Assembly (NCBI GenBank): GCA_030599585.1
Contig: JAUVNS010000004.1
Location: forward strand, 32,001-96,000
Length of the DNA stretch: 64,000 nucleotides
Source of the DNA: Promethearchaeota archaeon
Lineage (GTDB): Archaea > Asgardarchaeota > Lokiarchaeia > Sigyniarchaeales > SOKP01
Direction of reading: 5' to 3'
Both the position numbers and the translations under genes were made by a program. A model generated the notes under the pieces. That model saw only the letters and a program-made list of their open reading frames with translations, was not told where the DNA came from and searched no databases. Of the stretch, positions 12,980 through 43,597 are shown in pieces; within the stretch, counting starts at the first letter, position 1, and each line of letters begins with the position of its first letter.

Positions 12980-13719
12980 TAGAAGTGGAAAAAATAAATT
13001 TTGAGTACAATTCAAGTTTTTCTCTTAACGATTTATCTTTAACCATAAAAGAAAATTCGATCTACGCTTTAACAGGGAATAACGGGTCTGGTAAAACTAC
13101 GTTTCTCAGGTTATTAGTTGGTTTACTAAAACCTAAATCTGGAACTATTAAAATTTTCAACGAACTCCTGACTAGAGATAAACAACAACTCTGGAGACTT
13201 AGACAAAAAATCGGATTTTTATTCCAAAACCCAGATGATCAATTATTTGCCCCAACTATAGGAGAGGATGTAGGTTTTGGAGCAAGAAATCTTGGACTTG
13301 AAGAGCCTGAAGTGAACAAGAGAGTTGAATGGGCGCTCGAAGCTGTTAATTTATCGCAATATACTAAAAGTTCTCCGTACGATTTATCCTGGGGACAGAA
13401 AAAACGAGCTGCTTTAGCAGGACTATTAGTAATGAAGCCTAAACTATTAATATTAGACGAACCCTTCGCAAATCTTGATTTTAAATCAATTTATAACCAC
13501 CTACAAATTTTTAAAACCCTTAAAAAAGAGCAAAAGATGACAATTTTATTTACTACTCACAATCTTTTTTTTATAGAACATTGGGCAGATAAAATGCTTG
13601 TATTAAACGATGGAAGGGCTATATTTGAAGGTCTTCCTAAGGATGGATTAAACCTTCCCAAAATCAAGCAATTATTGGGGTCGTATAACGAACTCTTAAC
13701 TCTTATCAACCAAAAGTAA
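12970..13719 (+). CDS. cbiO: ECF transporter ATPase (probable ATT start at 12970; track uses GTG 12985)
   Basis: GNNGSGKT, FQNPDDQLF, LSWGQKKR, LDEP; upstream in-frame (M)SLIEVE gives the usual ABC N-terminus. Confidence 0.92.
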   Translation: MSLIEVEKINFEYNSSFSLNDLSLTIKENSIYALTGNNGSGKTTFLRLLVGLLKPKSGTIKIFNELLTRDKQQLWRLRQKIGFLFQNPDDQLFAPTIGEDVGFGARNLGLEEPEVNKRVEWALEAVNLSQYTKSSPYDLSWGQKKRAALAGLLVMKPKLLILDEPFANLDFKSIYNHLQIFKTLKKEQKMTILFTTHNLFFIEHWADKMLVLNDGRAIFEGLPKDGLNLPKIKQLLGSYNELLTLINQK

Positions 13720-13798
13720 TTTAGTTTTCCACTAAAATTGAATAAATTTTTTAATTTGTTCTTTTTATTATTACTTGGGAAAAACGATGATGGAACAT

Positions 13799-14073
13799 TA
13801 GCATATTCGAGGACGTTTATGATAACCCGTGATTAAACGTGCAAAATAACTGCTTACATCCTAAGTTTATTAATCAAAACTTACTGCGTCAAAAATGGGC
13901 TCTTAATCAAGCTTTGGTATAACCTTGCGATGAGATTGGAGTCAGACCCAGCACGCAGATAGATTATGCCCCAAAAAGGCAAAGAAATTACCGCCTAACA
14001 CGAGAGAATATATTTGATGTTTATGGTATGACCATAAGATGATAAATATGTGTTAGTGTTTTAGGCAACAATA
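13799..14073 (+). ncRNA. Putative three-hairpin H/ACA pseudouridylation guide sRNA
   Basis: Three hairpins, each with basal stem, internal pocket, upper stem, K-turn/K-loop-like motif and 3' ACA/ANA (13856, 13959-63, 14068); followed by a T-run at 14082-14088. Confidence 0.75.
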
Positions 14074-14137
14074 CTTGCTGATTTTTTTGCCCCTTTTCTT
14101 TTAAGATATGATTCTGAGCCTCAGAGACCTCACGGGT

Positions 14138-14617
14138 CTATAAAAGACTTATCGAATCTGAGCTGAATAGCTCTTTTAATTCTTTATTCATTTCGCTTTG
14201 ATCTTCTTGTTGAAGATAGTTATTAAGAACCGAAGCAATTTTTTGTGAGTATTTGTTCATGATTGCTCTCACGAGTCCTATTTGAATATTTTTATCGGTT
14301 GCAATACATAAGATACCCTTCCCGACTTTTAGCGAAAAGATCATCCCTTTAAAATATTCAGTTATTTGTAAATGTATCTTTCCATACCCTAAGATATATC
14401 CTTGTTCCTCGCCAGCCGTAAATACAGCTCCTCCAATCGCACCTATTTTTTCAACAGAAATGTCTTCTTCGGTAGGAGACTTTAATATGAATTTTGATTC
14501 GCTCATTATAGTTATCCCCGTATCATCTATGATTATAGCATATTTCAAGCCGGGCGTGCTATGAATAATTTCCTTAAGTATTTTCTTTAATATGCGTTCA
14601 TCATTAGAATAACTCAA
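14138..14617 (-). CDS. Roadblock/LC7 domain protein
   Basis: PGLKYAIIIDDTGITI...IGAIGGAVF...QIGLVR roadblock pattern. Confidence 0.85.
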   Translation of the reverse strand: MSYSNDERILKKILKEIIHSTPGLKYAIIIDDTGITIMSESKFILKSPTEEDISVEKIGAIGGAVFTAGEEQGYILGYGKIHLQITEYFKGMIFSLKVGKGILCIATDKNIQIGLVRAIMNKYSQKIASVLNNYLQQEDQSEMNKELKELFSSDSISLL

Positions 14618-14782: not shown

Positions 14783-15193
14783 TTAAAATAACTCTTGCGA
14801 CCTAATCAAAGTTTTTAAGGGTTTTACTCTGTTTTTATTATTTTTCGATTTTTCGAGTAAAATAAATAGTTTAAAGTTTTTCCCTTTGTCTATATCGAAT
14901 TTTAATTGGACCAGATTTGGATCATTTATTACTTCTTTATTCTCCTTATTCTTCGAGATTGCCCACAATGCTAATTTGTTCTCGTGAATCCAAAGCCGTT
15001 TTGAGATATTTGCGCCTATTGTAAATCCATTTCTATCAGTGATAACGCCCGCAACAAAGTTAGGAAAGTTTATTTTAATCTTATGTAAAAAATAATTAAC
15101 TTCCATTTGATTTATCAATCTAACATTTTCCTGTTTCATACCAAATAACCTATCAAAATCAATTGATTTATAGATAAAAAGTGAAAAAAACAA
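14783..15193 (-). CDS. Hypothetical, degenerate roadblock-like protein
   Basis: PNFVAGVITDRNGFTI resembles roadblock N-terminal strands; real start may be the ATG of MKQEN. Confidence 0.5.
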   Translation of the reverse strand: MFFSLFIYKSIDFDRLFGMKQENVRLINQMEVNYFLHKIKINFPNFVAGVITDRNGFTIGANISKRLWIHENKLALWAISKNKENKEVINDPNLVQLKFDIDKGKNFKLFILLEKSKNNKNRVKPLKTLIRSQELF

Positions 15194-15304
15194 TTGAAAA
15201 AAACGTGTGATATCACGATATCATTCATGTTCAATTAAAAACAATTCACAAAGAAAAATCGCAATTAGTCAAAAGAAAAAGGGTCCTTCTTGGTATTACA
15301 TATT

Positions 15305-16276
15305 TTATCTTTCTTTTCCTTTAATTCCCAGATCCAGATTCTCTACTAACTCGTTAAACCTATTACGAACCGTTACCTCTGTGACTTGAGACGTCTTAGC
15401 TATTGCGCGTTGCGTCCTCCTCTCCTTAGTTATGATGCTCGCGGCATAAATAGCTGCGGCACACACTCCAGTTGGACCACGTCCAGAGGTAAGACCTCTT
15501 AGTTCAGCCATCTTGATTACTTTTTTTGCTATCTTCAGACACTCAGTGGACAATTCAAGTTCTGAAACAAAGCGAGTAAGAAAATCTAAGGGTTTAGTGG
15601 GATTTAAGTTTAGTTCTAACTCCTTTGAGATAAATCGATAAGATCGCCCTATCTCTTTTTTGTTAACACGAGCAACTTCAGCAATTTCATTTAAAGTGCG
15701 TGGTACTTTATACATTCTGCATGCAGCATATAAACTTGCAGCCGCAACTCCTTCGATACTTCTCCCCCGAATTAAGTGAGCTTCAACTGCATCTCTATAA
15801 ATCTTAGCTGAACACTCGCGGAGGTTTTTCTGAAGATCGAGACTTGACGACATTCTATCTAACTCACTTAACGCAAAGGTTAAGTTTCTTTCGGTGGCAT
15901 CTGAAACTCTAATTCGGGATTGCCACTTTCGCAAACGATATATCTGTCCTCTGATTTTGGCTGAGATCTCTTTACCAAAGATATCTTTGTTCTTCCAATC
16001 AATCATAGTGCTCAAGCCTTTGTCGTGGATCATCAACGTCATAGGAGCACCAGTTCTTGTTCTTTTCTTTCTTTGATCTGAGTCAAAAGCACGCCATTCT
16101 GGACCTTGGTCTATGTGTTTTTCAGAGTGAACTAATCCACATTTTTCACAAACTAATAAGCCTCTATTTGCATCAAATAAAATATTTTTACCGCATTCAG
16201 TACAATTATCTTGACTTAACACTGTATTTTTTTCTACGGTTGCATCGCTATGATTCCAACTTGAAATAAATAACAC
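15305..16276 (-). CDS. tfb: Transcription initiation factor B
   Basis: CxxC...CxxCG Zn ribbon, [11 protein letters not shown]-reader, two cyclin repeats ([13 protein letters not shown]). Confidence 0.97.
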
Positions 16277-16313
16277 CTATTAATATCTTTTTATAATGGA
16301 AATTAGAGAAAAC

Positions 16314-16565
16314 TTATCTCATTTTAGCATAAAAATTGTCATTCGGGTTAAATTCCTTCTTTGGAGAAATTTTCATCGAAATGAATGGTAGTTCTTCTGG
16401 ACCAAAGATCTCTACAATTTTTCCTATCTCGTCAAATTCTTCAGTAAAAACGGGTCTATTAGTTATTTTTTCTAAACTTTTGTTCCACTTTGTCGTTCTA
16501 AAAATCTGATGTTTTTTCGATTTTCCGAGATAGAACAGATTTAATTTATTATATTTTTGCGTAAC
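16314..16565 (-). CDS. gar1: H/ACA RNP protein Gar1 (no canonical start; start position uncertain); absent from ORF track
   Basis: Translates ...VFTEEFDEIGKIVEIFGPEELPFISMK... (Gar1/Naf1 core); gar1 upstream of tfb is a conserved archaeal arrangement; in-frame TAA at 16590-16592. Confidence 0.85.
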   Translation of the reverse strand, partial: VTQKYNKLNLFYLGKSKKHQIFRTTKWNKSLEKITNRPVFTEEFDEIGKIVEIFGPEELPFISMKISPKKEFNPNDNFYAKMR

Positions 16566-43493: not shown

Positions 43494-43597
43494 GCCAAGG
43501 TGGCGTAGCCCGGAACGAGTTGAAACGTCTCAACAGTGGGTAAGAACGCACTAGACTGAAGATCTAGGTATCGAGGGTTCAAATCCCTCTCTTGGCA
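43494..43597 (+). tRNA. tRNA-Phe(GAA) with a 30-nt D-loop intron (43514-43543)
   Basis: CTAGA-CTGAAGA-TCTAG anticodon arm; removing the intron at the BHB bulges restores GCGT-AGCCCGGGA-ACGC. Confidence 0.9.

Follow-up and report, generated by a model that had tools for sequence, protein, structure and literature searches.

Positions 13776-14088 (about; + strand) of the stretch analyzed here, a window of 64,000 nucleotides (nt) from a Promethearchaeota archaeon (contig JAUVNS010000004.1), contain what we regard, with a probability of roughly 0.88, as a stand-alone gene for a triple box H/ACA guide small RNA (sRNA), which would be orthologous, within the Asgard archaea (Promethearchaeota), to Pab40/Pf7 from Pyrococcus (Rfam HgcG). 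An initial annotation, prepared from the letters of the window alone, had proposed an unannotated three-hairpin H/ACA guide aimed at 23S rRNA. This proposal was borne out by the covariation of the stems, the ANA boxes, and the complementarity of the pockets, and the three hairpins with their GA kinks and ANA boxes were all found in the sequence where they had been placed. The conserved RNA spans approximately 310 nt and is longer than the 13799-14073 originally delimited.

Archaeal H/ACA RNAs are recognized by hairpins composed of a stem, a pocket, and a second stem, by a kink-turn (K-turn) or kink-loop (K-loop), by an ANA box at a set distance, and by pocket strands that are complementary to rRNA. 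In each of the three hairpins, termed H1, H2, and H3 and all read from the + strand, a lower stem, large internal loop, and upper stem succeed one another, an ANA box is present after the lower stem, and both pocket strands are complementary to rRNA bordering an unpaired U-N, with 4 + 6 base pairs (bp) for H1, 7 + 7 for H2, and 4 + 5 for H3.

H1 (13800-13854) has the lower stem AGCA 13800-03/TGCT 13851-54, a pocket formed by the 5' strand 13804-12 (TCGAGG at 13807-12) and the 3' strand 13841-50 (GCAAA at 13841-45), and an upper stem at 13813-19/13834-40, and compensatory changes were detected in the upper and lower stems. The lower stem had been recorded as AGCA/TGCT, which is present in this genome, but it is really GCAUW/WAUGC, with 5 bp in most species and a fifth pair that alternates between A-U and U-A. 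The predicted K-loop (13820-33; TGA 13820-22 and GAT 13831-33) consists of U-U, G-A, and A-G closing an 8-nt loop, and the box at 13856-58 is ACA in 29/29 genus members and AUA in some other genera. No variation was seen in UCGAGG and GCAA of the pocket throughout the phylum sample.

H2 (13884-13958) is built on the lower stem CTGCGT 13884-89/ACGCAG 13953-58, five of the six pairs of which have changed on both sides, with the pocket strands 13890-13901 (5') and 13942-52 (3') and an upper stem at 13902-08/13934-41 in which 13938 is bulged. The hairpin proposed initially is real, but its upper-stem register, CTCT/GGAG with a bulged T13904, leaves one pair open in 19 of the 29 species and has been replaced by the register C13902-G13941 with a bulged 13938, which fits the variation better. 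The predicted K-turn is formed by A13909 and A13910 with GATGA 13929-33 and carries an apical stem above it. The ANA box (13959-61) is ATA here, read as AUA in the RNA, and among the 29 species it is ACA in 17, AUA in 11, and AAA in 1. The elements AAUGGGCUCUU and GAGUCAG..ACCC of this hairpin are conserved in the 29-sequence alignment.

H3 (13993-14066), the stems of which also covary, comprises the lower stem GCCTAA 13993-98/TTAGGC 14061-66 with CAC 13999-14001 opposite GUG 14056-58, the pocket strands GAGAGAA 14002-08 and GUUA 14052-55, an upper stem at 14008-15/14044-51, a predicted K-turn (GA 14016-17/TGA 14040-42), and an apical stem at 14021-27/14031-37, and is followed by an ACA box (14068-70) in 29/29 species. 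CACGAGAGA and GUUAGUG of H3 are invariant in the genus and nearly so in the phylum sample. The K-turns of H2 and H3 have a 3-nt bulge on the 3' strand, position 2n of that in H2 being A or U, and the tandem G-A positions of all three hairpins never vary.

The refined structure was scored on the alignment of 29 genus sequences for the proportion of paired cells, against controls with slid partners and 500 shuffles. The covariation of the stems across homologs had been set beforehand as a check on the proposal; 94.4% of cells were paired vs 32-44% with the partners slid, 20 pairs had changed on both sides, and the observed values were matched by none of the 500 shuffles (0/500), in a test that can overstate significance with related sequences. 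The same helices were recovered independently by RNAalifold. On folding, the + strand was more stable than dinucleotide shuffles (z -2.67), whereas the - strand was not (z -1.03).

A DNA search of relatives yielded a full-length homolog with 68-93% identity in 29 of the 36 genomes of the genus, and a covariance model constructed from the genus alignment found exactly one full-length copy in 119 of 131 family genomes, covering 13 genera. A second model, which was built from diverse family members, added single full-length copies in 30 more genomes from at least 12 other families of the phylum, these being weaker than the copies of the home family. In three closed genomes of the sister family (G044, G050, and G055), no homolog was found with the full-length model (best E 0.76), which may reflect excessive divergence, splitting, or loss of the RNA; two other sister-family genomes do carry a homolog. 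One genus member (G029, contig C17) has a second, partial copy consisting of the H3 hairpin only (L030:1501-1578; 79% identity over 80 nt, covariance-model E 9e-12), approximately 600 nt from its full copy (L030:2073-2379).

The predicted targets were examined on the rRNAs of the genome itself, which encodes one 23S (3368 nt) and one 16S on another contig than the RNA. E. coli numbering was assigned by the alignment of this 23S to that of E. coli, and a duplex-energy scan of every U in both rRNAs was performed with the pockets of the 29 species. The invariant H1 bases GCAA and UCGAGG form 4 + 6 Watson-Crick bp with UUGC-UU-CCUCGA at U2743 of the large subunit (LSU) rRNA, a position that aligns to E. 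coli 2496 in the peptidyl-transferase ring and had a median rank of 1 for H1 over the 29 species. All eight of the other Asgard genomes checked share this rRNA site and the invariant guide bases. The initial annotation had anticipated a U bracketed by UUGC and CCUCGA near E. coli 2496, and the brackets are present as expected, but the middle is UU instead of the UA proposed there. We assign U2743 firmly as the predicted target of H1. An alternative at LSU U786 (7 + 3 bp) was rejected because its pairing involves guide bases that differ among species, while the invariant UCGAGG would take no part in it.

Regarding H2, the pocket in the home family reads AAUGGGC(U) on one strand and (U)CAG(N0-2)ACCC on the other. 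At U2832 of the 23S rRNA, by alignment the counterpart of the A-loop residue E. coli U2554, this pocket pairs with GCCCAUU over 7 bp and with UGGGGCUG over 7 bp plus one mismatch. Across the whole 4.85-Mb genome, the pattern is matched best by the combination UGGGGCUG-UAC-GCCCAUU at U2832, the fit was equalled by only 4 of 300 shuffled guides, and U2832 had a median rank of 1 over the 29 species in the energy scan. The variable insertion in the 3' arm faces a G of the rRNA, and a C or U at this point adds a pair. Target arrangements with UNN have been shown to be functional (PMC2377435), as have those with UNUN (PMC7075261). U2832 is the probable predicted target of H2, and we lean towards the A loop as its main one. 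A high-scoring candidate at LSU U841 was discarded; it needs an impossible pocket top.

The initial annotation had directed H2 to the vicinity of E. coli 2585, an assignment that fits in other Asgard families, whereas the guide bases of the home family fit the A loop better. Outside the order, the homologous pocket (G/A)ACGGGC/UCA-ACCC fits GGGUU-UA-G.CCGUC canonically at E. coli U2586, with the ACA box 14 nt from the first paired base, and the guide AACGG of G189 is complementary to CCGUU at this site of its own rRNA. Two lineages have a C at E. coli 2554, a feature noted in family f12, and, therefore, the A loop cannot be their target. The spacing between the ACCC block and the ANA box is likewise constant at 13 nt throughout the phylum sample (A13946 is located 13 nt upstream of the box), and in the present genome GACCCAGC pairs over 8 bp with GCUGGGUU, placing U2864 at 14-15 nt from AUA. 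The H2 of this genome may still guide its ancestral U2863/U2864 (E. coli U2585/U2586), instead of or besides the A loop; however, we consider this to be unlikely. The 5' arm AAUGGGC of the home family forms 7 bp with the flank of the A loop, but its pairing with GACCGAC is limited to approximately 4 bp and includes one mismatch and one wobble; at the 2585 site, the conserved AAU and CAG remain unpaired. Furthermore, insertions of 1-2 nt between CAG and ACCC break the U2585 contact in most genus members, and the median energy rank of U2864 was 14. ACCC is lost altogether in the two detectable sister-family homologs, the pocket of which, GGGCG/CAGC (CUGGGCG/CAGC in one), finds a canonical GCUG-UN-CGCCC on their own rRNA (GCUG-UU-CGCCCA in that one). 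Since the homologs outside the order, motif 2 of Pf7, and, by estimate, pseudouridine (Psi) 2605 of H. volcanii all fall on the same site, we read H2 as an ancestral U2586 guide that appears to have been re-aimed or double-aimed in this order, with U2863/2864 as a possible second target. To our knowledge, no H/ACA guide for U2554 of the A loop is known in other archaea.

For H3, no canonical site was found in scans of the own 23S and 16S rRNAs, and a 7-bp partner of GUUAGUG with a suitable U and 5' arm was not present in the rRNAs. A genome-wide search for a perfect target elsewhere returned only chance matches inside or antisense to coding frames. In helix 69, GGGAGUAAC-UAUAA-CUCUCUU offers UAAC to GUUA and CUCUC to GAGAG (4 + 5 bp), and the helix is identical wherever the H3 guide is identical among the genomes compared. 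In the rRNA of family f12, the two bases that close the helix-69 stem have changed places, giving GACUAAC..GUCUC vs GAGUAAC..CUCUC elsewhere, and the guide in three genomes of two genera reads GAGAC vs GAGAG, such that the 3' arm GUUAGU then pairs over 6 bp. This compensatory change between guide and target favors the helix-69 region, which had been named tentatively at the outset, with only moderate weight because it represents one lineage event. We consider helix 69 to be the probable and best-supported target of H3, with U2171 and perhaps U2173 (E. coli 1915/1917) as the predicted sites.

An energy scan by itself would direct H3 elsewhere: a variable hairpin of domain V (LSU 2645-2652, UUAAC-UGUG-CUCGUG) was the top match for the H3 pockets in all 29 species, CACGAG can form 6 bp with CUCGUG, and four family genomes retain CUCGUGUGG. 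Nevertheless, we regard this site as an improbable target. In G101, an A replaces the U that would be modified, the sequence of the 5' flank differs between family members, and sister and other Asgard families have an entirely unrelated segment although their H3 pockets are unchanged. The CAC at the base of the pocket may instead pair with GUG inside H3, and this helix is extended by a gained pair in the homolog L079. The compensatory change in family f12 supports helix 69 and not the domain V hairpin.

Several peculiarities of the rRNA genes were noted alongside. In the present genome (G000), the LSU (65805-69172) and small subunit (14856-16345) genes on contig C3 are unlinked and approximately 50 kb apart, and helix 91, between the H1 and H2 target sites, has a 31-nt expansion relative to E. 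coli. The f12 genomes L117 (G189) and L130 (G205) have a divergent A loop, GCGGGUGCUCACCGAUU, together with the C at E. coli 2554 and the flipped closing pair of helix 69. The 23S of G192 (L116) carries approximately 40 additional nucleotides immediately 3' of the A-loop flank CCCAUUAAAAAGG, and the 23S matches of G101 (L082/L085) and G128 (L083/L086) are broken by gaps hundreds of bases long around own position 2879. The interruptions in G192, G101, and G128 could be introns or expansion segments.

A number of points weigh against the assignment of this RNA to the H/ACA guides. A search of the window with Rfam returned no H/ACA match, whether gathering thresholds or a limit of E 10 was applied. 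From the pocket to the GA motif, the upper stems measure 6-7 bp (H1) or 7-8 bp (H2 and H3), a little more than the 5-6 bp that is functional in Pyrococcus together with an ANA distance of 14-15 nt (PMC2377435). The ANA box is located 14 nt from the pocket top of H1 in the genus and 15 nt in this genome, 16-17 nt from G14052 in H3, and, on the A-loop reading, 16-18 nt from the CAG element in H2; components of H. volcanii and M. jannaschii are active up to 17-19 nt if ACA is present (PMC7075261). The spacing is, thus, canonical in H1 only and at or just past the edge of published tolerances in H2 and H3. The pairing of H2 with the A loop leaves three target bases (UAC) unpaired, and that of H3 leaves five (UAUAA) and relies on a 3' arm of only 4 bp in the family. 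A loose scoring of the H1 pocket of this genome alone was matched by 29 of 300 shuffles; the H1 target is strong despite this result because of the exact use of invariant bases. The leniency of the covariation shuffles towards related sequences belongs on the same side. It is very improbable, however, that the RNA is no pseudouridylation guide and instead acts structurally or as a chaperone, belongs to the long box C/D or U3-like RNAs, or forms an element of the cbiO 3' untranslated region. A box C/D-like K-turn at its 5' end, the CUGA near its 3' end in the genus, the lack of an Rfam match in the window, and the predicted nature of its expression and of the modifications would suit such a role. 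On the other side, conservation of the 3' CUGA does not extend to the whole family, box D lacks an antisense element, a conserved promoter-like box belonging to the RNA lies upstream of it, each of the three hairpins shows the series of stem, loop, stem, GA motif, and ANA box, and conservation within the RNA is highest in the internal-loop bases, which are complementary to the rRNA surrounding uridines known as Psi sites elsewhere.

Among known RNAs, the closest counterparts are Pab40 and Pf7. The best Rfam match was RF00064 (HgcG), which was obtained on the correct strand in four of ten distant Asgard homologs (E 2.4e-6, 8e-4, 0.14, and 0.74), with all scores (14-32 bits among the distant homologs) below the gathering threshold of 77 bits. 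In P. abyssi, Psi2588 is guided by motif 1 of Pab40, motif 2 of Pf7 has been predicted to act at P. furiosus 2701, and motif 3 is directed to helix 69 (PMC2377435). The targets of Pab40/Pf7 (Table 1 of PMC2377435) were mapped by constant offsets to E. coli 2496 (P. abyssi Psi2588), 2586 (P. furiosus 2701), and helix 69; the offset of 92 was constant over the three Pab35 sites that the same study equates with the E. coli RluE, RluC, and RluB sites. Like Pab40/Pf7, the Asgard RNA is a series of three H/ACA hairpins, each bearing an ANA box and a predicted K-turn or K-loop; the site of motif 1 is that of H1, the helix-69 site of motif 3 is that of H3, and the site of motif 2 corresponds to the H2 fit in most Asgard families, whereas H2 of the home family fits the A loop instead. 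The Asgard RNA differs in being A+U-rich, in its upper stems of 6-8 bp vs 5-6 bp, and in that the window has no detectable sequence match to RF00064. Since the trio of 2496, 2586, and helix 69 appears in the same 5'-to-3' order and distant homologs match HgcG, we file the RNA as a putative diverged ortholog of the HgcG family, on the grounds of transitive similarity, the three-hairpin layout, and the shared target trio instead of a model score.

In H. volcanii, the double stem-loop sRNA sR-h45 makes Psi1940 and Psi1942 of helix 69 with stem-loop 2, leaving four bases unpaired (UNUN), and Psi2605 with the other (PMC7075261). According to our own offset estimate, Psi2605 corresponds to E. coli 2586, and the sites of sR-h45 are, thus, the H3 site and the ancestral H2 site. 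The same study shows that atypical pockets and ANA distances up to 17-19 nt can work (PMC7075261). sR-h45 has two hairpins and none for E. coli 2496, whereas the Asgard RNA has three and would leave five target bases unpaired in H3 vs four. In yeast, snR46, snR10, and snR191 guide Psi2865, Psi2923, and Psi2258/2260 of 25S rRNA, respectively (PMC8307265). By alignment, Psi2923 of snR10 is the A-loop position of H2 and adjoins Um2921, which is E. coli Um2552. Psi2865 lies in the same region as E. coli 2496, the H1 site, and probably corresponds to it, and the snR191 sites are probably those of H3 in helix 69. These yeast guides are separate two-hairpin small nucleolar RNAs (snoRNAs) with an H box and an ACA box that use Nhp2 and have no K-turns; their likeness to the Asgard RNA is in the targets, and no sequence homology is claimed. 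A description of H/ACA sRNAs of Asgard archaea was not found in the literature searched.

In addition to the three hairpins, each module is enclosed by a further helix. H1 lies within a predicted basal K-turn in which the 5' leader (13777-13794: C-stem 13782-85, bulge 13786-88, G13789, A13790, U13791, and GGA 13792-94) supplies the bulged strand of a box C/D-like motif and pairs through 13782-94 with the non-bulged strand UCC-U-(G/A)A-GUUU (13859-13868), which directly follows the H1 ACA box and has A-A here and G-A in most species. It consists of a 4-bp C-stem, a 3-nt bulge, G-A and A-(G/A) pairs, U-U, and a GGA/UCC stem; all four pairs of the C-stem (4/4) have changed on both sides and 97.5% of cells are paired. 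The leader motif GGGAAAA..RAUGA.GGA is kept across the family and in distant families, in which the same K-turn appears as GC-RAU-GA-A-GGA with UCC-A-GA-GC. H2 and its ANA box are enclosed by the outer helix AUAAUCA/UGAUUAU (13871-13875, UAAUC here and AUAAUCA in most species; GAUUA 13962-13966), which has 100% of cells paired in the genus, is predicted independently by RNAalifold, and has compensatory variants in other genera. H3 and its ACA box are enclosed by GCAUA(G) of the H2-H3 linker (13979-13983, GCAAA here and GCAUA in most species), which pairs with UAUGC of the 3' tail (CUUGC 14074-78 here). This genome has a compensated swap of U-A to A-U at one pair of this helix, the four species without its 5' strand are also without the 3' UAUGC, and the helix reaches 11 bp in a sister-family homolog. 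A mini-hairpin at 13967-81 was rejected, having no covariation and overlapping the better-supported outer helix, as was a terminal stem between the 5' GCAUA and 3' UAUGC, the 5' GCAUW covarying with the H1 strand and not with the tail.

We tentatively propose that the middle hairpin of a Pab40-type guide was re-aimed from U2586 to U2554 of the A loop in this order, and that each Asgard module is locked by a closing helix, one of them a fourth, box C/D-like K-turn, which would place every ANA box inside an internal loop. The retargeting of H2, the closing helices, and the fourth K-turn are modestly novel, and the RNA otherwise belongs to a known kind.

The mode of action may be outlined by analogy with characterized archaeal H/ACA ribonucleoproteins (RNPs). 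L7Ae would bind to H1 at its K-loop and to H2 and H3 at their K-turns, with the basal K-turn around H1 as a probable further site, while one set of Cbf5, Nop10, and Gar1 would dock on each lower stem and ANA box. Each internal loop is predicted to bracket a uridine of 23S rRNA by base pairing through both its strands, and Cbf5 would then convert this uridine to pseudouridine. Profile searches identified genes for Cbf5 (433 bits) and Nop10 (52 bits) in the genome. A gar1 gene had been placed at a distance of 2.2 kb, and a 91-codon frame resembling Gar1 is indeed present there (window 16317-16463, - strand), immediately upstream of the TFB (TFIIB) gene (15305-16276, - strand), but its score of 27.5 bits is below the Pfam cut-off of 29.3; it had not been listed as such among the open reading frames (ORFs).

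The predicted pseudouridines fall in the peptidyl-transferase ring, A loop, and helix 69, positions that are also modified by eukaryotic small nucleolar RNPs, and, because of this coincidence, RNA-guided modification of these three 23S sites may predate eukaryotes. The initial annotation had attached a bearing on the origin of snoRNAs to the three-hairpin layout. This was overstated; the layout alone says little on that origin because multi-hairpin H/ACA sRNAs such as Pab40/Pf7 are already known in Euryarchaeota (PMC2377435). The present analysis supplies a well-supported non-coding gene for Asgard genomes that Rfam-based annotation has missed and an alignment across the phylum that is ready for covariance models. 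The retargeting of H2 and the closing helices with the extra K-turn provide modest, concrete leads on the evolution and packaging of multi-module guides.

With respect to its surroundings, the RNA follows a gene for a cbiO-type ATP-binding cassette ATPase (12985-13719, + strand; Pfam ABC_tran), which is preceded by CbiQ and CbiM, and is bounded on the 3' side by a convergent ORF (14138-14617, - strand). The ORF listing of the window contains no frame of at least 40 amino acids overlapping 13720-14137. An A/T-rich box, AATAAATTTTTTAAT (13741-13757, + strand), is situated approximately 25-30 nt 5' of the conserved GGGAAAA leader, and its conserved position and sequence in the genus flanks suggest a candidate promoter. 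The 3' tail (14074-14088) continues from the outer-helix strand into CUGA (14078-81), which is conserved in only part of the family, and a T-run (14082-88) that is a probable terminator. Because of the conserved box upstream and the T-run downstream, the RNA appears to be transcribed from an independent gene of about 310 nt, the boundaries given here being predicted ones. Elsewhere in the window, a tRNA match at 43539-43597 (+ strand) scored 32 bits with Rfam vs 56-63 bits for the other three tRNAs.

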